Positions 5,498 to 41,863 of a stretch of 64,000 bases of DNA are shown here, piece by piece. The notes under the pieces are model-generated. The model had not been told where the DNA came from and did not search any database. It worked only from the letters and a program-made list of their open reading frames with translations. How positions within the stretch are numbered: the first letter of the stretch is position 1; every line of letters starts with the position of its first letter. Source of the stretch: Candidatus Bathyarchaeia archaeon (GTDB lineage: Archaea > Thermoproteota > Bathyarchaeia > Bathyarchaeales > Bathycorpusculaceae); NCBI GenBank assembly GCA_038882955.1, contig JAVZNC010000001.1, positions 1-64,000 of the forward strand, given 5' to 3'. A program made the position numbers and the translations under genes.

Positions 5498-5958
5498 ATG
5501 AGTCATGATAAGGGAAAAGTGCTAGAGGAAACAAGGAAGGAACTTCGTCAAATGGTAGATGAAAGTTTTAAGTGGCAAAGGAAATTGAACATATGTTCAA
5601 GTATAGGCTTAAGGATGTTACAAGCGTTAAAGACCTAGAACTCATATCAGCCTTAATTACTAGATTGACGGAACAGTTAGCAGACCTAGCGATGCTTCAG
5701 TATAGAATTTTAGTGGAACTAAAGGATGCCTCCTTTTACATCTTATATGTGCCTCTCCATACAACTTTAGAGTTTAACGAAAGGACACTACCTTTGGTAG
5801 GTCAGCGACTTCAAGCATTCGAAAGTGAAGTTGAACGCTTAAAGAAAAGTAGAGAAAAGATTGTAGTTGAAGTGCGCAAAGAATACGAAGAAGCCATGAA
5901 AGAGCTCACTAAGATGTTGGAAGAACGGAAACGAAAAGAGAAAGGGATTATTGTATGA
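5498..5958 (+). pseudogene. coiled-coil hypothetical protein, apparently frameshifted near 5570
   Basis: ATG 5498 (MSHDKGKVLEETRKELRQMVDESFK) follows the RHH stop; downstream ORF 5572-5958 is in the -1 frame. Confidence 0.45.
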
Positions 5959-6167
5959 TGAATAATCCTTTACAATTAAAAAATAGCTAAGGAATCTCAA
6001 TATCGAGCCGATGGAAACTCTGGTTTATGTAATGCATTTAACAGAACCCGAAACCGAAAAACAAAAAAATCTCGAAAAACAAATGTATATTGCCCCCCTT
6101 TGGATTTATGCTGGTCCCTAAGGGGGTACGGCGATGAAACTCCAATTGGAGCGAGAGCCGATTCATT

Positions 6168-7970
6168 TTACTTGTCGATTCTAAGTTTCGATGTTTTGCT
6201 AGCTAATGCTTTTCGGTATAGAATTTCGGATTCAATATGGGTTGTACGGCAACGGGGAGACTTAATGAGGTGACATTTTGGAGCTGCTATATTTGTTATG
6301 TTTGGAGGTGATCTTATAACGAAATATCCCGGTGGCAGCTGGGAGATTCTGGATGCGAATTCTTGTAAGTCTCGGGCTTGACTTTTAATTGCTGCTTCCT
6401 CAAGATTGCCAAAAATTTTAGTTCCAACTAAGTCGTTAACAGTGGTATGGAAATCTTCTGGTGAGTGTGAAATTAAAACTAAACCAGCACCTGCAGCTCT
6501 AAAGACGCGCATTGTTTCAATAACTGTGGAAACAAGTAATTGTTGATAACCAGGTCTCGGCGACCTTGGGACAATGTAATGCGCTTCATCCAATATTTGC
6601 ATTAAATAGGGTTCTCCGGGTTTCTTTTTCTTAGCTTCAACGGATTTAAGTAGCCAATGTAATTGGAATATCATTCTAAACTCGAATGGTACTTGGCTAA
6701 CAGAAATTATATTTAGCCGAGGAGATTTCATAATTTCTTGTTCAACAAAGTCTGTGGCGCCTTCTTTATCAAAAATTTTCGATCTATCCATTGCTATAAG
6801 ATTTCTCTGGATGCTTTGTATGGTAGAAGAGTACAAACCCAAGTTACTCATTGTTTCTTGTCCATTTCTACTTAGAGACCAGTTCATCATATTATTAAGA
6901 GTCGCTTTTCCGGCTTCACCTGCATATTTACGAAAGGCATCCATGACTTGAGGGAAAAAGTCAACAGCTTGCTCGGATGGGTTTGGCATATAAAGTGCAG
7001 CAAGCTCAGCTGGTATATTGTTCCATTCAATAGTGAAGGGCTTCATGTGTTTTCTAAGTGCTTCAACATCATAGCCTTCATCCTTGAGGTAAGTAAAGTT
7101 CGGCGGATGGTCTGGCAAGTAGTATATATATGATTCGGAGATTTCCATAGGGCTAAAACCCATTTCTTCCCAGAACTTCTTGTCTTCCTCTGTAAAACCG
7201 AGTTTATCAGGTTCAGCTTTAAATATCATCTGAGCAAACTCGTCTTTAAAATCAGGGGCGATGACCACCCAATCGGATTCATATGCATGTTCTATTAGAG
7301 TTTTTGCAAGAACTGTTTTGCCCGACCCCGGTCCTCCAACTATATAAACTCCACGGAATACGGCATACGGATCTAATGGGTAAGGAAATACTTTTTCGAT
7401 ATCATTTTCCTTAAAGCGGACAATTTTCATACCTTGAACCAAGGCACCGATGGTCCACCCTTCTCTGAAAGCGTAAATTATCTTCATCTCTTGAGGCAAA
7501 GGTAAGAAGATCGGGCATCCATAAGGAACAGGGGTGATAACGGGTCTTAATGACTGGCTTTTATCGTCAACAACTCCTATCAGGTCTAGTGTGCATGTCT
7601 GAAACAATTCAGGAATTATTGACCTAATATTCTTAGACCAATTTTCGGTAAGAGGCTTCAAATCTCTGTATCCGGCATAAAGCGGGCTTTTAACACCAGG
7701 CGGAGGTTGCAGACCATGTTCTACTATTCTTGCTGCAACCTTCTCTTTAATATTATAGCTTCCTCCCTCAGTTGTATAAACACCAATGATAACGTCTGTC
7801 CCAAGTGAAACGTCAGCTTCTAACCTAAAGTTAGCTATAACGCTCATCCGTTCCTGTGTGATTGTGGCAGGGTTTAATTCGCTGGGTGCGGTAACCCCTA
7901 TTATCTTTCTTCCTGTAACTTCAAGAAACTCCTTATTTGTATTCAATCTCCCCACCCATACGCTTCCCAA
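6168..7970 (-). CDS. HerA/FtsK-like ATPase (DUF87 family)
   Basis: Walker A GGPGSGKT, PDFKDEF strand, Walker B ILDEAH, N-terminal beta-rich (HAS-like) region; start may be TTG 7946. Confidence 0.82.
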   Translation of the reverse strand: MGSVWVGRLNTNKEFLEVTGRKIIGVTAPSELNPATITQERMSVIANFRLEADVSLGTDVIIGVYTTEGGSYNIKEKVAARIVEHGLQPPPGVKSPLYAGYRDLKPLTENWSKNIRSIIPELFQTCTLDLIGVVDDKSQSLRPVITPVPYGCPIFLPLPQEMKIIYAFREGWTIGALVQGMKIVRFKENDIEKVFPYPLDPYAVFRGVYIVGGPGSGKTVLAKTLIEHAYESDWVVIAPDFKDEFAQMIFKAEPDKLGFTEEDKKFWEEMGFSPMEISESYIYYLPDHPPNFTYLKDEGYDVEALRKHMKPFTIEWNNIPAELAALYMPNPSEQAVDFFPQVMDAFRKYAGEAGKATLNNMMNWSLSRNGQETMSNLGLYSSTIQSIQRNLIAMDRSKIFDKEGATDFVEQEIMKSPRLNIISVSQVPFEFRMIFQLHWLLKSVEAKKKKPGEPYLMQILDEAHYIVPRSPRPGYQQLLVSTVIETMRVFRAAGAGLVLISHSPEDFHTTVNDLVGTKIFGNLEEAAIKSQARDLQEFASRISQLPPGYFVIRSPPNITNIAAPKCHLIKSPRCRTTHIESEILYRKALASKTSKLRIDK

Positions 7971-10879: not shown

Positions 10880-10955
10880 TGGTAGCCCGGGAGAGATTCG
10901 AACTCTCGTCAGAGGCTCCAGAGGCCTCCATGCTTGACCGCTACACCACCGGGCT
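10880..10955 (-). tRNA. tRNA-Gln(CTG), CCA encoded
   Basis: Reverse complement AGCCCGGTGGTGTAGCGGTCAAGCATGGAGGCCTCTGGAGCCTCTGACGAGAGTTCGAATCTCTCCCGGGCTACCA; A1-U72; anticodon loop CT-CTG-GA. Confidence 0.96.
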
Positions 10956-34420: not shown

Positions 34421-34474
34421 TTGGCGGATAGGCATCCGCTGGGATGTAACCCTAAAGAAAAGGGGTTGAACCAT
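34421..34474 (+). promoter_or_regulatory. structured 5' leader of rpl15e (candidate r-leader)
   Basis: Hairpins TTGGCGGAT/ATCCGCTGG and AACCCT/GGGGTT between the TATA box (~34387) and ATG 34502. Confidence 0.5.
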
Positions 34475-34501
34475 AAACTAGAAAGGAGGAATGCATTGGA
34501 A

Positions 34502-35796: not shown

Positions 35797-36527
35797 AAAA
35801 GGCGTATGCGGACTTGCATTTGCTTCCAAACCCTAGGGATTTAAAACTGGTTTCGCGCATTGTGAGTAAGGCATCTGCACTTGGATACAAGGTTATAGGC
35901 ATATCATTGCCACAAAATTTTGGACAAGAAGAAATTCAAAAATTGAAAAATTTGTGCGCAGAAAACAAAATTGACTTTGTTTCTCGTGTGGATTTGAAGC
36001 TGCGAAGCCCAAAAGAGCTAATCAGAGACCTGAGAAAAATGCGGAGAAAATTCGAGTTAATAGCCGTACTATGCGAGTCAAAAAGCGTTGCAAGACAAGC
36101 AGCGAAAGATAGGCGCGTAGACCTTCTAAACTTTCCGTCAACAGACTTTCGCAAAAGATTCTTTGATAGGGCAGAGGCAGAATTAGCTTCGAACGCGTTG
36201 GCATCGCTAGAAATAGACGTTAAGCCTCTACTCACGCTTGAGGGACTCGCAAGAGTAAGGCTCATACACAACATTAGAAGAGAAGCCGCAACCGCCACCA
36301 AGTACGGTGTTCCCATAGTGATTTCGAGCGGCGTAGCAGACGAACGGCTAATGCGAAAACCGATGGAGCAAGCCTCTTTGGCTTTTCTCTTCGACTTGGA
36401 CGAGGCAGCAGCCTTAAAGGCGGTTTCAAAAAACCCAATAGCAATAGTAAAAAAGAATAGGGAGAAACTTAGTCCAAAGTTTGTTGCGCCTGGAATAAGG
36501 GTCATTCGGAAGGGGAAAGATTGCTGA
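35793..36527 (+). CDS. rnp3: RNase P protein Rpp30
   Basis: YADLH, RQAAKDRRVDLL, IVISSG; gene context. Confidence 0.85.
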   Translation: MKKAYADLHLLPNPRDLKLVSRIVSKASALGYKVIGISLPQNFGQEEIQKLKNLCAENKIDFVSRVDLKLRSPKELIRDLRKMRRKFELIAVLCESKSVARQAAKDRRVDLLNFPSTDFRKRFFDRAEAELASNALASLEIDVKPLLTLEGLARVRLIHNIRREAATATKYGVPIVISSGVADERLMRKPMEQASLAFLFDLDEAAALKAVSKNPIAIVKKNREKLSPKFVAPGIRVIRKGKDC

Positions 36528-36841
36528 AGAAGGTGAAGAGGCGCTATTTGGCGCTTAAAATAGATTCTACGGAAAAAATCGGCTCAAAAGAGTTTATCGA
36601 CAGCGTCTGGAACGCAGTGTTGAAGCTTTATGGAGAGTATGGCGCAAGCCATACAGGCTTGACGTTAATAAGCTATGATGATGAGCAGCAATTAGCGGTT
36701 ATACGCGTAGCGCATGCTGCCCTAAAAATGGTTAGAGCAGCAATAGCAACAATAACAAGAATAGGCGAGAAACCAGCAACCATCCACATCCTAACAGTTT
36801 CAGGAACAATAAAAACACTAAACAAAAAAATAGGAACATAA
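36521..36841 (+). CDS. rnp2: RNase P protein Pop5/Rpp14
   Basis: KRRYL, LYGEYG, VSGTIK. Confidence 0.9.
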   Translation: MLKKVKRRYLALKIDSTEKIGSKEFIDSVWNAVLKLYGEYGASHTGLTLISYDDEQQLAVIRVAHAALKMVRAAIATITRIGEKPATIHILTVSGTIKTLNKKIGT

Positions 36842-36865
36842 GCTGAATAATAGCTTACTTTTGCT

Positions 36866-37000
36866 CATCAATTGGAACCTTTCCACCAGTATAAAACTTT
36901 CCTTCCTTGCTTTGAAGAGTCAACAAGGCCTTCTCTCACTAGCTTTTCTAACGCAAGTCTCACTCTCGTGTATTGACTTGGGGCTCCTTTTGGCCAATCT
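36866..37000 (-). pseudogene. wHTH C-terminal remnant
   Basis: Frame reads SQYTRVRLALEKLVREGLVDSSKQGRKVLYWWKG* with upstream stops; ends approximate. Confidence 0.4.
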
Positions 37001-37235
37001 TATATGCTCTGCTAGGTGTATTATCACCATATTATCTCCTATATTATCACTATTTGTTTACTATTAAAAGAGAAATAGAGGTAGCTAATGGGCGGTTTAG
37101 TGAAAGGGGGCTCTAAATAATTCGGAATTAGTGTGGGAATGGGATACTGGAATGGATAAAATGGTGGTTTAGGGTCGGAGCTTGAGCGAACATCTTATAT
37201 TTTGATAATTTAATGCTAATATTTGTGGTTATACT

Positions 37236-37622
37236 GTGGAACTTACCGAGAAAGAAAGGCTAATGCTGGTTGAAAAGAAAGAGGAAATTAGAAGATTAAC
37301 AACTGAAATTTTGGGAATGGCGTCTAATCCAAAAAACGAGTTGGAAATCAAAAAAGGATTTACTAGCATTTTAGCACATTTGAATACTATCGCGTCTTAT
37401 TCTGACTGTCAGAATTACGATTTAGATAGATTAACGTCTGCTATAAACGCTTTATTTATCACCATGCGTCGTGAAGAAAGAGCGAATGTCTGGGTTGTCT
37501 CCCCATTGTATATCGAGGTAACTTGCAATCACATAAATTCCATTAGATTCAATTTCACAAAAAGAGACGTAAAGATACATCTGCCTAAAATAGACATTTC
37601 GATATTCAGAACTAATAAATAG
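37236..37622 (+). CDS. hypothetical protein
   Basis: 128-aa ORF, GTG start after a TATA-like box. Confidence 0.6.
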   Translation: MELTEKERLMLVEKKEEIRRLTTEILGMASNPKNELEIKKGFTSILAHLNTIASYSDCQNYDLDRLTSAINALFITMRREERANVWVVSPLYIEVTCNHINSIRFNFTKRDVKIHLPKIDISIFRTNK

Positions 37623-37712
37623 GTAGAGCATTAAAATCTTTATTTGTAAATAGCTGATGCTTGTTACGATACGAAAGGTGGGAAACGTAAGAAATTATGA
37701 AAAGTGATAATC

Positions 37713-38117
37713 ATGGAAAAACCGCTAGGTAAAGAAGAACAAAAGGCGTATTTGCATAGTAAAATAGGAGAATCAGTCAATTTTAAGTACCCAGAACCCC
37801 CGTACCTTTTGAAAGGTAAGTTACTGGACAGATATGCAATTTCTTTGGGATATGGAGACGAATGGGTAGATTATTAGATGATTGTAGACATTATTAAGTT
37901 TGAAGGTGAGACTGAGGACTGGCTAAGGATAACTTACTATAGGTACAAGAAGAAAGAAATGAGATGGGTTTTTGCGGGTCAAACAGCATTGGCGATGCCA
38001 ATAAGTGGTTTCCGTGAATTATTCATCAAGGTAATAAAAGAGAAAGAATGGATTAGACCGCTTTTCAAAGAAATCTACAAACAATGTTTAAACGAGTTAA
38101 ATATAGAAAACTTATAG
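37713..38117 (+). pseudogene. hypothetical protein with in-frame TAG at 37875-37877
   Basis: ATG 37713 gives MEKPLGKEEQKAYLHSKIG...WVDY*, in frame with ORF 37878-38117. Confidence 0.6.
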
Positions 38118-38230
38118 CTGAACCAAAAGAACTAATCAGAATCAGAGAATTGCATAGGCTCTTTTTGAGAACAGAGCAAAAGTTTAAAATTTTATATAGA
38201 AAACTGCCTATTAACTGGATGAGAATTAAA

Positions 38231-38524
38231 ATGAGTAAAGAACTTGAACTTAAACCATTGCTAAAGAAACTAGACGACCTAGCCAATAAAATAGACACGT
38301 TAATCATGGTCACAGCAGTTACACATCAGAGTCAAAAACTTTTAGAAGGCAAATCGCAGAAAGAGCAGATTAAAATTCTTGCTGAAAGAAAGCTTCCGAG
38401 AGACGTAATCGCGTTGATAGTCGGCACCAAACCAGAAGTTGTAAGTGTTAGGTTAAGCGAATTAAAGAGTAAGTCTGGTAAACCAAAGGAAAAACCACAA
38501 AAACAAGTAGAAGAGGCTCAATAA
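38231..38524 (+). CDS. small coiled-coil + HTH protein
   Basis: LDDLANKIDTLI...LPRDVIALIVGTKPEVVSVRLSELK; TTTATATA box at ~38190. Confidence 0.7.
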   Translation: MSKELELKPLLKKLDDLANKIDTLIMVTAVTHQSQKLLEGKSQKEQIKILAERKLPRDVIALIVGTKPEVVSVRLSELKSKSGKPKEKPQKQVEEAQ

Positions 38525-38541
38525 ATAAGAGGATCATTTAA

Positions 38542-38745
38542 ATGAAAACGAAAAAATCCGTTGGAAATAGTGGTTTAAATAAGAAAATTGAAAAGGTAAA
38601 CAAGAAACTGGACATGATAATAGTTATCCTTTTAGCTAAATCTGGTTTTACAAGAAAAGAAGTAGCCGACGTTTTGAAGGTAAGCGAGAAAACCATAGAA
38701 CGAATGCTTCCATTTGAGAAGCTCAAAAAACGGCGTGAAGAATGA
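38542..38745 (+). CDS. small coiled-coil + HTH protein
   Basis: VNKKLDMIIVILL...FTRKEVADVLKVSEKTIERML. Confidence 0.75.
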   Translation: MKTKKSVGNSGLNKKIEKVNKKLDMIIVILLAKSGFTRKEVADVLKVSEKTIERMLPFEKLKKRREE

Positions 38746-39449
38746 AAAAGCCTGAATTAGACCCACGGATTGTTCAAAAAATAAAAAGAAAGGGAAAAAT
38801 TTCTGAAAAAACAATAAGACCAGCTATTTCTAAAATTAGAGGAGACAATCCCTCACTTACACTGAATGCTGCAGCAGAAATATTCGCTAAGAAACATGGT
38901 TTCAGCGTTTCAAGATATCTAAATGACAAGGATAGGGACGCCTTAAAGAGTCTGCAAATAGAAAAAATAAAAGTGCCAGTAGGCAAACCAAAATCAAGAA
39001 AGAAAATTGCAATAATCGCCAATTATGACACTACTGACCCATTACTAAAAGCTCATATTGATGAAATAAACAAAACATATACCTACGGATGTTACACAGC
39101 TACTTTTATTCTCTGTAGGAAAGTTTTAGAAAATTTGATAGTTCATCATATTCTTAGAAAAAAATATCCAGAAAACTCAGAACAGCATAGAAGTAAATAT
39201 TTTGATTTTAATAGAAACAGAAATTTAGATTTCAATAAATTATTGACAAATTTGAGGGAATCATCTAAGGACTTCGGACCAGAGAAAAGTCTTGTTGAAA
39301 GAATCTGTCAGTTGGCGGAGAGATTCAAAGAAGAAGCAAATGAAATGACGCACTCTTTGTATCATATAGCAACAAAGAAAGAGATAGATGAAATACGATT
39401 TCAGTATATACTGGATTTAATTAAAAAACTTGAAAGGACTTTGTCCTAA
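38742..39449 (+). CDS. DUF4145/HEPN-like protein
   Basis: YTATFILCRKVLENLI and KEEANEMTH (degenerate Rx4-6H). Confidence 0.6.
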   Translation: MKKPELDPRIVQKIKRKGKISEKTIRPAISKIRGDNPSLTLNAAAEIFAKKHGFSVSRYLNDKDRDALKSLQIEKIKVPVGKPKSRKKIAIIANYDTTDPLLKAHIDEINKTYTYGCYTATFILCRKVLENLIVHHILRKKYPENSEQHRSKYFDFNRNRNLDFNKLLTNLRESSKDFGPEKSLVERICQLAERFKEEANEMTHSLYHIATKKEIDEIRFQYILDLIKKLERTLS

Positions 39450-39537
39450 ATTTTCTGAGACTTATTTTTATATTATCATCTTAGGCTTTCGTAGGCAGTA
39501 TCCCCATTCAGTTTTAGTTAGTAGTGCATTTGTATAG

Positions 39538-40500
39538 CTATTTACGTTTACGGAATAGCTTAGCACCATCTATATCAGTTACATAGTCAAAGCCTTGCTC
39601 TAGCAGAGTCTTAGCCTCATCAAGGGTTCTAGCCACAGCAACATGGTACTCTTCAGATGGAAAGGCTACTAGGTGAGTGTAACGGAGAGTGGCTCTAAGG
39701 TCTCTATGACCCATTATAGATTTAACATATAGCAAATCTTTAGTTTTATAATATTCTAAGGAAGCCTTAAGGTGTCTAAGGTCGTAGAGGCGTATAGACT
39801 TAATGGAAGGGTCACCGAGCTTATTAGCAACCTTGTTACGTACACGTCTAAAGGTTTCAGATAGGGATTCAGACCTTATAGGAAAGAGCCTATCATTTAA
39901 AGATAGTTTTTTAATGGCTACGTAGGCTTTTAGCATAGCTAGTGTTTGAGGTGTAAGTTTAAGGGTTCTACCAGAGCAGTGTTTAGCACTTGTAACAGTC
40001 ACCATACCAGACTCTAAATCTACATCTTTAAGCCTTAACCATGTAAGCTCTATAGGTCTAAGACCTAGGTCTCTAATTATACTAAAGGCTAACGCATACC
40101 TTTTAGAAGCATTAGATATTATCAGATTAACCTTTTCCATAGTAGGTAGCTTTGGCAGTCTATCATAGCGTTTATAGAAGGGTTTAGACCATGCTAGACC
40201 GTTAGCCTTGCAATAGAGGTCGTAGGCTTCCACTAGAGTCTCTTTAAAAGCCATGCTACAACCTTTTAAAGCTATAAAGCCCTTTACAGTCTCTGGATTG
40301 GATAGGTCACAGTTTCTAGATAGGTGTCTAAGCCTTTTAGCAGTAGCCTTGATATAGCTTTCAGAGTAGGCGTTCTTTTTCATATACCATAGAGTATTAA
40401 AAAGTTTATCAGTTGGGGATGCTGTTATAGCTTTGGGGGATGATGTTGCCGTCCCAGACTGATTTATGCGGATGAGGAACTCATGACGGACAGACCCCAA
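39538..40500 (-). CDS. tyrosine recombinase/integrase
   Basis: GLRPIEL, SAKH, YDLRH, MGHRD, LRYTH; C-terminal GFDYVTDIDGAKLFRKRK; first ~23 codons overlap the sRNA antisense. Confidence 0.92.
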   Translation of the reverse strand: MGSVRHEFLIRINQSGTATSSPKAITASPTDKLFNTLWYMKKNAYSESYIKATAKRLRHLSRNCDLSNPETVKGFIALKGCSMAFKETLVEAYDLYCKANGLAWSKPFYKRYDRLPKLPTMEKVNLIISNASKRYALAFSIIRDLGLRPIELTWLRLKDVDLESGMVTVTSAKHCSGRTLKLTPQTLAMLKAYVAIKKLSLNDRLFPIRSESLSETFRRVRNKVANKLGDPSIKSIRLYDLRHLKASLEYYKTKDLLYVKSIMGHRDLRATLRYTHLVAFPSEEYHVAVARTLDEAKTLLEQGFDYVTDIDGAKLFRKRK

Positions 40501-40501
40501 A
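40432..40501 (+). ncRNA. box C/D guide sRNA (23S rRNA Gm2251 and ~Um2593, E. coli numbering)
   Basis: Terminal stem TTTGGGG/CCCCAAA; C ATGATGT 40440; guide TGCCGTCCCAGA; D' CTGA 40459; C' ATGAGGA 40472; guide ACTCATGACGGA; D CAGA 40491. Confidence 0.8.
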
Positions 40502-40521
40502 CAAACGCCCTTTATTACAAA

Positions 40522-41250
40522 CTACAAGCGAAAACGTTCTTGTAACTTCTTTTTGCGCTTAAGCCCAAAAGCCAATGCCAAAACCAACCCTGCAACAAAA
40601 CCGCCTATGTGTGCAAAGTAGGCTACGCCTCCAGAAAGGTCAAAGTACACGTAAAACCATTGTAGCAGGAACCATATGCCTAGGAAAATGAAAGCTGGAA
40701 CTGGCAGGATCGCATAGATAAACAGCGTTAAAATTATTGCTTTTGGGTAAAGTATGAAGTAGGCGCCTAAAACGCCTGATATGGCTCCAGAAGCCCCAAC
40801 AACACCGTCAGCCAAACTCGAAGTTATGGGCAAACCCACAAGCTGATAAAGCAAAGGTGCATACAACGTTACAAGAATGTGGGTGAAATCCGCGGCTAAC
40901 CCGCAGATAAGATAGAAGATTAGGTATCCTGCATGTCCAAAAACGTCTTCTACATTATCGCCGAAAACGAAGAGGAAAAGCATGTTTCCAAAAAGGTGAA
41001 ACCAGCTGGCATGCATAAACATCGAAGTAAACAATGTATATAGGCGTTCACCGTGGAGAATTTCGTTTGGCACCATCACAAAAGCGCCGCTTTGGCTTTC
41101 TGTTCCAGCCATGTAAACCGCGATTTTCTCGTCCAAAACCCCTATGCTTGAAAGCCAAAAAACAACAAAAATTGCTATGTTCAAAATTATTAGTAGGCGG
41201 TTTACGTGCGGCGTTGTTTTAGACCTATTAACGTCTCTAATGGGAAACAA
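40522..41250 (-). CDS. rhomboid intramembrane serine protease
   Basis: HLFGNMLFL, GASGAISG, AHIGGF. Confidence 0.93.
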   Translation of the reverse strand: MFPIRDVNRSKTTPHVNRLLIILNIAIFVVFWLSSIGVLDEKIAVYMAGTESQSGAFVMVPNEILHGERLYTLFTSMFMHASWFHLFGNMLFLFVFGDNVEDVFGHAGYLIFYLICGLAADFTHILVTLYAPLLYQLVGLPITSSLADGVVGASGAISGVLGAYFILYPKAIILTLFIYAILPVPAFIFLGIWFLLQWFYVYFDLSGGVAYFAHIGGFVAGLVLALAFGLKRKKKLQERFRL

Positions 41251-41314
41251 GCGAAACTCACTGACTGAAAGGTAGACGCCAAAAGGCTATTTAATCCTTT
41301 AACCAGTCACGGGC

Positions 41315-41689
41315 TCAGTAAGCCAAACACTCAATCATCCTTTCGCAAGTTAAACACTCGTCTGGAATAGGCGTGTTCTTTGGACGCTTCCGTAAATACC
41401 CAAGAAAATGCTTACAACCAGCAGCACTCGCATGCTCACCAACCTTTTCAGTCCTCTCAACCTTTTCGACAATTGCTCGGTTCTCTTCTCTCTCCTCGCC
41501 ACGTTTACGCTCTTTAACGTCAACCCTTGAAAGACAACGCGGACAAGCATAATAAACATGAACACACCCACCAGAAGAATCCGTCGCCAAAAGAGGCCTC
41601 TGAAAAGTTTCATGACACCCACTGCAGCGATAACTACCCAAACCCAAATCTTCATAGCCAACACGAATCGCGCTTAAACTCTTTTCCAT
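41315..41689 (-). CDS. zinc-finger hypothetical protein
   Basis: CSGC, YYACPRC, CKHFLGYL..IPDECLTC..MIEC. Confidence 0.7.
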   Translation of the reverse strand: MEKSLSAIRVGYEDLGLGSYRCSGCHETFQRPLLATDSSGGCVHVYYACPRCLSRVDVKERKRGEEREENRAIVEKVERTEKVGEHASAAGCKHFLGYLRKRPKNTPIPDECLTCERMIECLAY

Positions 41690-41788: not shown

Positions 41789-41863
41789 TGGGCCCGGCCG
41801 GATTTGAACCGGCGACCAACAGGTTATGAGCCTGTCGCTCTAACCTAGCTGAGCTACGGGCCC
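41789..41863 (-). tRNA. tRNA with CAT anticodon, most likely tRNA-Ile2
   Basis: Reverse complement GGGCCCGTAGCTCAGCTAGGTTAGAGCGACAGGCTCATAACCTGTTGGTCGCCGGTTCAAATCCGGCCGGGCCCA; GGGCCCG acceptor typical of archaeal Ile tRNAs; no encoded CCA. Confidence 0.92.

Follow-up and report, generated by a model that had tools for sequence, protein, structure and literature searches.

The 64,000-nucleotide (nt) window analyzed here (GenBank assembly GCA_038882955.1, contig JAVZNC010000001.1, positions 1 to 64,000) comes from a Candidatus Bathyarchaeia archaeon and holds, between two host genes, a region of ~3.56 kb that ends in an integrase gene running antisense into the gene for a box C/D small RNA (sRNA). 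The left host flank is the gene for the RNase P protein Pop5 (36521..36841, +), recognized by comparison with empty sites and by a protein family match. The right flank comprises the sRNA gene (40432..40501, +) and a rhomboid protease gene (40522..41250, −) that is convergent with the sRNA and co-oriented with the integrase. Between them lies the putative integrated element (36875..40431), delimited by its composition and by comparison with empty-site relatives, with an eroded left end. Its integrase portion, Int(C), is a tyrosine recombinase of 281 amino acids (aa) read from an internal methionine (MKKNAY) to the stop codon (39538..40383, −), and is separated from the sRNA by a spacer that, judging from relatives, encodes an integrase linker and the start of helix 1 (40384..40431, −; ..ASPTDKLFNTLWY). 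Based on metagenome-assembled genomes (MAGs) and metagenome sequence, which underlie all results reported here, we think it likely that small integrative elements with an Xer-like integrase of the 'suicidal' type use the 5' end of this sRNA gene as their attachment (att) site, and that the window copy is an old, trapped insertion.

On the + strand the sRNA has the layout UUUGGGGG-AUGAUGU-(12 nt)-CUGA-UUUAUGCGG-AUGAGGA-(12 nt)-CAGA-CCCCAAA. Read directly from the sequence, it consists of a terminal stem (TTTGGGG/CCCCAAA, 40432-38 and 40495-501), a C box (AUGAUGU, 40440-46), a 12-nt D' guide (40447-58), a D' box (CUGA, 40459-62), a C' box (AUGAGGA, 40472-78), a 12-nt D guide (40479-90), and a D box (40491-94) that reads CAGA where the consensus is CUGA. 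This architecture had been assigned in an earlier reading of the sequence alone (the original prediction), and all of its parts were present. Across an alignment of 28 homologues, the C box (RUGAUGA-type) and C' box were retained, with AUGAUG and AUGA.GA unchanged in 28/28, both guide spacers measured exactly 12 nt, and the GGGG/CCCC stem did not change. The parts without variation were GGGG, AUGAUG, G.CGUCCCAG (D' guide), C.GA, AUGA.GA, CAGA, and CCCC; the loop varied and, in some families (G060, G052, G025, and G039), so did the entire D guide. Partial matches in these four genomes were considered as att scars and rejected, since each proved to be a complete sRNA that differs in its D guide and agrees in its 5' half.

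BLAST searches with 106 nt around the sRNA against 61 relatives, ranging from the same genus to the same order, gave matches in 54 genomes at E ≤ 1 and in 45 at E ≤ 1e-3 (the latter a manual tally of the table). A covariance model built from the 28-sequence alignment was applied to 151 genomes drawn from the whole class; 53 had the sRNA, nearly all of them in one copy, and covariance model R1 scored the window sRNA at 94.7 bits (E 9e-23) with no other match in 16 kb. The source organisms of the homologous proteins and contigs were Bathyarchaeia, and fibrillarin and Nop5 are encoded by adjacent genes in the same genome. On the basis of sequence, guide pairing, and this distribution, 40432-40501 is very probably a box C/D sRNA gene, nearly always single-copy and, as the original prediction supposed, conserved, here across the Bathyarchaeia. 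The same sRNA (68 bits) was also seen beside a 40%-identical integrase on a contig labelled as a Methanocella MAG (L172), where mis-binning or transfer is possible.

The region between Pop5 and the sRNA has a GC content of ~0.33 (from ~36900 to ~40400), against ~0.44 in the flanks. In alignments to the loci of relatives, homology extended to ~36830, at the end of Pop5, came back exactly at 40431, at the start of the sRNA, and continued through the rhomboid gene. The empty sRNA locus beside the rhomboid gene that the original prediction had suggested looking for was found in G003, G002, G011, G028, G034, G035, G022, and others, with at least 10 relatives carrying the sRNA between Pop5 and rhomboid and no element; G003 belongs to the same genus as the window host and has a flank identity of 85-87%. 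Gene order at the empty sites is Pop5 (part of an Rpp30-Pop5 operon), promoter, sRNA, rhomboid, and 45-120 nt lie between the two stretches of homology, including a clear TFB recognition element (BRE) and TATA box (GAAAGyTTATTTG or CATTTAAG); the sRNA begins 45-75 nt after Pop5. Because just 45-120 nt are found at the empty sites, the ~3.56 kb of low-GC DNA in the window is, by sequence comparison, an insertion placed precisely at the 5' boundary of the sRNA. Contig joints in four public DNA runs, from 36827, 36831, or 36833 to 40431, omit ~3.6 kb (with sides of 23-24 nt and 85% likeness), which at most hints at co-occurring empty-site relatives. Over window positions 36000-41500 in these runs (X1-X4), summed contig depth peaked at the sRNA bin (191 and 294) and stayed level at its minimum across the island (26.4 in X1), a pattern compatible with many related populations that share the flanks and one that has the island.

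Duplicated sRNA segments and linked integrases were found in the relatives. The nearest integrases, in G021 (72%), G001 (68%), G009 (61%), and G004 (45%), lie ~50-75 nt from the same sRNA on the opposite strand, and integrase 5'-end remnants adjoin the sRNA in G024, G020, and G052. Partial sRNA copies, located some kb away in G021, G009, G024, G032, G001, and G059, stop after nt 19-33 and give way to unrelated DNA; where the flank is visible, they are preceded by the native promoter and Pop5. Judged by these junctions, the partial copy is attL and the intact sRNA adjoining the integrase is attR. Such attL/attR pairs form direct repeats bounding the relatives' elements; the window's own element has no attL. 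The att core in the window (attR, 40435..40460) comprises the 5' stem strand, C box, and D' guide of the sRNA, i.e., the segment duplicated as attL in relatives, and its 23-nt core occurred once in the window versus not at all in 100 shuffles. With the R1 score of the sRNA, this sets the arrangement well apart from chance. The G032 MAG (6% contamination) contained both an empty Pop5-sRNA-rhomboid site (L055, C18) and an occupied site with an attL copy (L048, C33), which are probably two strains polymorphic for the element.

A profile scan of metagenome contigs yielded 509 integrase relatives, and linkage to the RNA model was assessed in the best 80 of these (at least 55% identity). Of these 80 loci, 79 had an R1 match on the other strand at a distance of 39-108 nt upstream of the integrase (75 strong matches, including four truncated at contig ends, one shortened to 30 nt, and three weak or partial), and the 80th locus has just 56 nt of upstream sequence. 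Among genome loci, with one genome per species, the sRNA lay upstream of the integrase in 46/71, comprising 24/24 at 54% identity or above and 22/47 among the more distant ones. The survey of noncoding RNAs at the 5' ends of homologous integrases proposed in the original prediction returned the same sRNA almost throughout among the close homologues. A second, weaker RNA match on the same strand, 1.6-9.8 kb downstream of the integrase, was present in 29/80 loci, of which four were inspected. Together, the empty sites, the partial attL copies, and the near-universal linkage bear out the earlier proposal of an intC-like fragment of an element that would integrate into a C/D sRNA gene and supply its promoter.

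Several loci showed other arrangements. L081 has a partial att (5836-5873) directly before the integrase (5921-6763) and 5.4 kb from a full sRNA (382-451), and in L071 (9966-10100) and L078 (12654-12788) the sequence after attL is a small leftover of a different integrase start (..ATLWLTKKEA and a stop codon); all three look like tandem or nested insertions. A distant integrase clade (25-44% identity; L167-L213, e.g., L170, L171, L175, L176, L204, L206, L208, L211, and L213) is also linked to the sRNA, at 139-155 nt, a distance that implies a longer N-terminal region.

The full open reading frame (ORF) of the window integrase (39538-40500, −) spans 320 aa from a TTG start and, as had been noted before, is antisense to the sRNA over its first 23 codons. 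Pfam PF00589 matched at 54.5 bits (cut-off 27.1), and residues R109, K134, Y200, R203, H226, and Y235, invariant in 36 homologues, are all kept in the window protein. We take these to be the catalytic residues of tyrosine recombinases (R..K..(H/Y)xxR..H..Y) and predict that the family is active in recombination. No match to PF16795 (Phage_integr_3) was found in the integrase, PF00589 being the only family recovered even at E up to 10. The nearest solved structure was XerA (5hxy, E 8e-10), and the XerA equivalog NF040815 scored 75.3 bits, far below its cut-off of 220. By family matches, the integrase is Xer-like (PF00589) and outside the SSV superfamily (PF16795). The analogy to SSV1 and pTN3 made in the original prediction consequently does not extend to the protein family; it does hold for the position of attP within the ORF, as follows.

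Coding continuity through att was evident in several comparisons of the loci. The frame is open upstream of MKK in 20/20 loci, with the motif (K/R)I(L/F)N(T/V)LW(E/Y) directly before M/L/C-KK, and the methionine itself is replaced by L, C, or R in 6 of the 20. The distance from the MKK codon to the sRNA was divisible by three in 5/5 relatives' elements, and the integrase-sRNA gaps in the 79 metagenome loci, which fall into 17 length classes, left a remainder of 0 in 60 cases, of 2 in 19, and of 1 in none when divided by three (gap and attL counts are hand tallies, and an error of 1 in the R1 model boundaries is possible). Among database entries, the longer ORFs cross att in matching frames, giving ..GTATSSP.. 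or ..(S/V)WDG(D/I)IIP... On 9 of 12 attL sides, an ATG-started ORF in the integrase sense, with its ATG a few to ~45 codons upstream, enters att; the other three comprise an open frame that lacks an ATG, a frame with a stop, and a side truncated at a contig end. In 9 cases this N-terminal piece, Int(N), agreed in frame with the frame class of the cognate integrase, and Int(N) peptides were conserved per class (..RNPY..TQDT(K/R)KLLRRKSGTATSSP and M(T/A)E(N/I).KE...KP.SDWDG.IIP).

Contigs of the attP type, in which only the 5' ~22-25 nt of the sRNA are present (L093 and L138), offered a view of the putative joined gene. L093 carries an unbroken ORF, M..NVLLQKKVL-GTATSSP-NKLAPSPTNKVFNTLWQ-MKKNAY.., in which the sequence upstream of att is element DNA and not sRNA, and the proteins P0073, P0078, and P0082 likewise derive from unbroken ORFs with non-sRNA N-termini. 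When the L093 protein was modeled with AlphaFold2 (mean pLDDT 85.5), residues 1-24 came out as disordered and residues 27-37 (KVFNTLWQMKK) as one helix, so that the 'start' methionine falls inside helix 1. We conclude from these frames and predictions that attP probably lies inside the integrase ORF and that integration would remove Int(N) together with its promoter. The first ~13 codons of the 320-aa ORF, antisense to the 3' half of the sRNA, and the TTG at 40500 are host-derived and not native integrase; this fortuitous ORF might be translated, e.g., by read-through from the co-oriented rhomboid gene.

An alternative, which we judge unlikely, is a classical integrase of the pNOB8/lambda type, with a gene that starts at MKKNAY, an att site ~50 nt outside it, and a gene left whole on integration, the open frame being a by-product of a stop-free att and promoter geometry. 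An ATG occupies the MKK position in 14/20 loci and gene callers begin most homologues there (281 aa), and this alternative was kept for that reason. A distance of 51-54 nt from the ATG to the sRNA would also suit one common TATA box firing both ways, Int(N) pieces are short and predicted to be disordered, and the Int(N)-att ORF of L138 is shifted by 1 nt, at a C-run, relative to the integrase frame. Further observations count against attP within the gene or against the breadth of its support: L048 has a stop directly before att and L050 lacks an ATG; terminal repeats were not found in L093 and L138, and no circular contig was found; protein and profile scans of IMG/VR returned no relatives except one 28% match; and the metagenome, genome, and relatives' loci overlap, are related, and are partly redundant (L146 = L045; L152 = L046). 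The classical arrangement is at odds, however, with a peptide motif that is kept before the methionine position in all 20 loci, the six with a replaced methionine included, with spacer lengths that wholly avoid one frame class (60/19/0), with the nine cases of agreement between Int(N) frame and spacer class, and with a predicted helix that spans the methionine. The original prediction had raised the possibility that homologues start at MKKNAY without any tie to noncoding RNA genes; the tie proved near-universal, and gene callers do mostly start at MKK, though the frame continues upstream in 20/20. An attP inside the ORF is our preferred reading.

The spacer between the integrase and the sRNA contains a candidate promoter and repeats. 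A BRE/TATA (AAAGTTTAT, 40401-09, +) is placed 34 nt before GGGGG, the spacing of the native promoters of G011, G034, and G022, and AAAAGTTTAT is located at 40400-40409; its placement within the integrase coding sequence agrees with the original prediction. From the start of the element-side AAAG(y)TTAT to GGGGG, the distance is 34 nt in the window, G001, and G021 and 34-36 nt in G009, G004, and G052. Since the native promoter remains on the attL side, the rebuilt sRNA would have to rely on element sequence that is itself integrase coding, and the element BRE/TATA is the predicted driver of its transcription. The degenerate copy of the sRNA 5' end reported earlier was recovered as a direct repeat at 40415-26 (+; GGGGATGCTGTT vs GGGGATGATGTT at 40436-47, 21 nt apart). 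In addition, an inverted copy of the CCCAGNCTGAT segment, with its left arm at 40408-19 and its partner at 40452-63 (+), is a perfect 17 nt in G001; the window copy measures 12 nt, with 83% agreement. We infer that the repeat pair resembles core-type binding sites around a crossover.

These features would fit the following model. The attachment site of an element family of ~2-10 kb would be the first ~20-30 bp of the sRNA gene, which comprise the 5' stem strand, C box, and D' guide. In the free element, the integrase ORF would run from an Int(N) of ~12-45 aa through the att-encoded peptide and a spacer of 13-36 codons into the 281-aa body. Integration would cut off Int(N) and the integrase promoter, as in the 'suicidal' integrases of SSV and pTN3; attL would keep the native promoter and a 5' piece of the sRNA, and attR would regain an intact sRNA, driven at the native distance by the element BRE/TATA inside the integrase coding spacer. 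The window copy would be an old insertion that has lost attL and Int(N) by deletion and carries a frameshift in one cargo gene, and so is trapped.

What the sRNA would guide was assessed against the 23S genes of G011 and G052, which are complete, because the MAG of the host has a full 16S but just the 5' half of its 23S; pairing was judged by the N+5 rule. The best rRNA match of the D' guide is an 11-bp pairing (1-2 G-U) with GCUGGGGCGGCA in the 23S of both genomes, in which the fifth nt upstream of D' opposes the second G of GGGG. As CUGGGGCGG represents positions 2248-2256 of E. coli rrlH, the N+5 residue is G2251 of the P-loop. In a review table (PMC11542601), E. coli Gm2251 (made by RlmB) is equated with H. 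marismortui Gm1950, made by aFIB and an sRNA, with snoRNA-guided equivalents in eukaryotes. We predict that the D' guide directs 2'-O-methylation of G2251. For the D guide, the best rRNA partner was ACCGUCGUGAGA in helix 93 (10 bp, one G-U, N+5 on U2593), with a score well above that of the next candidate, and U2593 is probably its target, though less certainly than G2251 for the D' guide. Elongator tRNA-Met, a further candidate for the D guide, was rejected after reading its sequence.

An alternative is that the conserved 70 nt are a DNA or RNA element of some other function that resembles a C/D RNA, and not a working methylation guide, which we regard as very improbable. Its best arguments also tell against our assignment: the D box is CAGA and not CUGA in 28/28 homologues, while D' is C(U/C/G/A)GA, so that the GA of the kink-turn is kept and U becomes A (presumably placing a U-A in place of the usual U-U beside the sheared G-A pairs); no C/D family was found in the window at Rfam gathering thresholds, the best match, sR60, reaching 18.7 bits where the threshold is 50; covariation is absent from the stem, which never varies and hence lends no independent support to the structure; and the D-guide target involves 10 bp, including a G-U, at a residue that is not among the methylation sites known to us. 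Against this alternative stand the exact 12-nt spacers, the four invariant boxes, the BRE/TATA of the RNA itself, and the best rRNA match of the D' guide, which places N+5 on the universally methylated G2251; in addition, the D guide differs from family to family around constant boxes, as is typical of guide RNAs. That the sRNA is element cargo, as the original prediction allowed in its second option, is almost certainly wrong: it always adjoins the integrase, and the promoter on the occupied side is element DNA, but it is a host gene present without an element between Pop5 and rhomboid in at least 10 relatives, single-copy in nearly all 53 genomes that have it, met by returning homology exactly at its 5' end, and represented in the attP-type contigs by its 5' ~22-25 nt only.

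Related integrases were also found at other RNA genes. Integrases 38-51% identical to that of the window lie at the same short distance from tRNA-Val, tRNA-Thr, and tRNA-Pro genes, and an RNase P RNA gene is present in 4/20 loci. In these four (L032, L037, L041, and L042, from G055, G042, G059, and G022), the integrases are 38-44% identical and lie ~50 nt from the end of the RNase P RNA (Rfam RF00373, 189-218 bits), which thus seems to be a further att target of the family. At L031 (G024:C6) and L038 (G012:C84), family integrases abut a common, RNA-like conserved sequence, GGGTAAACCCGCCATCAC..., for which no tRNA or Rfam family match was found, and L028 and L030 have another upstream sequence in common.

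The remainder of the window element carries few recognizable genes. From the left end, it comprises a small winged-helix-like ORF that is frameshifted into two overlapping frames (36868..37057, −; assigned from our reading of its translation) and cargo ORFs of 128, 57, 79, 146, 67 (helix-turn-helix [HTH]), and 235 aa (37236..39449, +) that belong to no informative family. The 67-aa HTH protein matches phrog_4583 (repressor, 1.3e-5), and Pfam and PHROGs searches with the cargo ORFs of both this element and that of G009 otherwise gave almost nothing. The native promoter region after Pop5 is recognizable in part. A second partial sRNA copy with an intN fragment, which the original prediction suggested might exist, did not appear: no second att copy, attL, or Int(N) fragment is present in the window or anywhere in the whole MAG. 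The window element is most likely an immobilized remnant in which Int(C) is intact and attL and Int(N) are lost. In the 8.9-kb element of G009, a 297-aa cargo protein (L152:12060-12953) is weakly similar to major head proteins (phrog_267, E 1.8e-6), and some elements may be small proviruses or satellites. A Zn-ribbon protein encoded on the attP-type contig L138 (2729-3472, −) has an H-F-H-V motif reminiscent of the HUH motif of rolling-circle Rep proteins. Elsewhere, the window contains an eL15-Euryarchaeota ribosomal leader (Rfam, 45 bits; 34424-34477, +), a tRNA-Gln(CTG) (10880-10955, −), and a tRNA-Met(CAT) (41789-41863, −).

The integration sites described for archaeal elements are tRNA genes, intergenic sites, and a small number of protein-coding genes. 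The terms sRNA, snoRNA, and RNase P do not occur in the main text of a 2021 review of archaeal tyrosine recombinases (PMC8371274). Literature searches combining box sRNA with integrase returned papers on other subjects only, as judged by titles and abstracts, and searches on snoRNA-like integration sites in archaea and on Bathyarchaeia integrases or att sites found nothing on topic. In a Bathyarchaeia virus survey, 'sRNA' was absent and the integrase passages named no att site. We regard the C/D sRNA target, and likewise the placement of att inside the ORF in an Xer-like family, as not described in the literature searched.

These results suggest that a C/D guide RNA gene is a regular target of an abundant integrase clade, representing a new class of att site, and they point to a conserved, previously uncatalogued Gm2251 guide RNA in the Bathyarchaeia. 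The locus also offers a case, open to testing, in which the promoter for a guide of ribosome modification comes from a mobile element. The results further suggest that the att-inside-gene design arose more than once. A broader scenario, which we offer tentatively and as somewhat short of an even prospect, is a second, independently evolved 'suicidal' lineage (Xer-like, non-PF16795) that radiated in the Bathyarchaeia over C/D sRNA, RNase P RNA, and tRNA genes, with takeover of Gm2251 guide transcription by the element. In that scenario, the promoter lying antisense within the integrase ORF would couple ribosome modification in the host to keeping the element, and in the free element it would give rise to an antisense RNA over the integrase 5' end.

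Among known systems, the closest in design are the pTN3-like, SSV-type ('suicidal') integrases of Thermococcales plasmids, which share the attP within the ORF, the 5' part of an RNA gene as target, and the supply of a promoter. According to PMC8371274, attP of pTN3 is within the integrase ORF near its 5' end and attB is the 5' part of the RNA gene, integration rebuilds a tRNA gene that is expressed from an element-supplied promoter, and PF16795 is common to the SSV, pTN3-like, and pT26-2-like families, with all known suicidal integrases traced to a single origin. In contrast, the target here is a C/D sRNA and not a tRNA, the integrase is PF00589/XerA-like and not PF16795, the host belongs to the Bathyarchaeia, and the gene combines a very short Int(N) with an Int(C) in which an in-frame methionine is kept. 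XerA-type archaeal tyrosine recombinases are the closest relatives in sequence and structure (5hxy, NF040815), whereas the window gene is linked to mobile DNA and att sites, and not to dif. Bacterial phages and islands in ssrA/tmRNA and ffs/4.5S RNA (PMC12540744 for ffs) likewise use a conserved non-tRNA RNA gene, restored after insertion, as the att site of a tyrosine integrase, but they concern another domain of life and another RNA class. Most of them use the 3' end of the gene, and the native promoter is kept. Lastly, the sRNA itself resembles archaeal box C/D sRNAs (e.g., Pyrococcus sR60 and the H. marismortui Gm1950 guide) in its C/D'/C'/D order, 12-nt guides, terminal stem, and N+5 on the P-loop G, and differs from them in the CAGA D box of all 28 sequences and in scoring below every Rfam family threshold.

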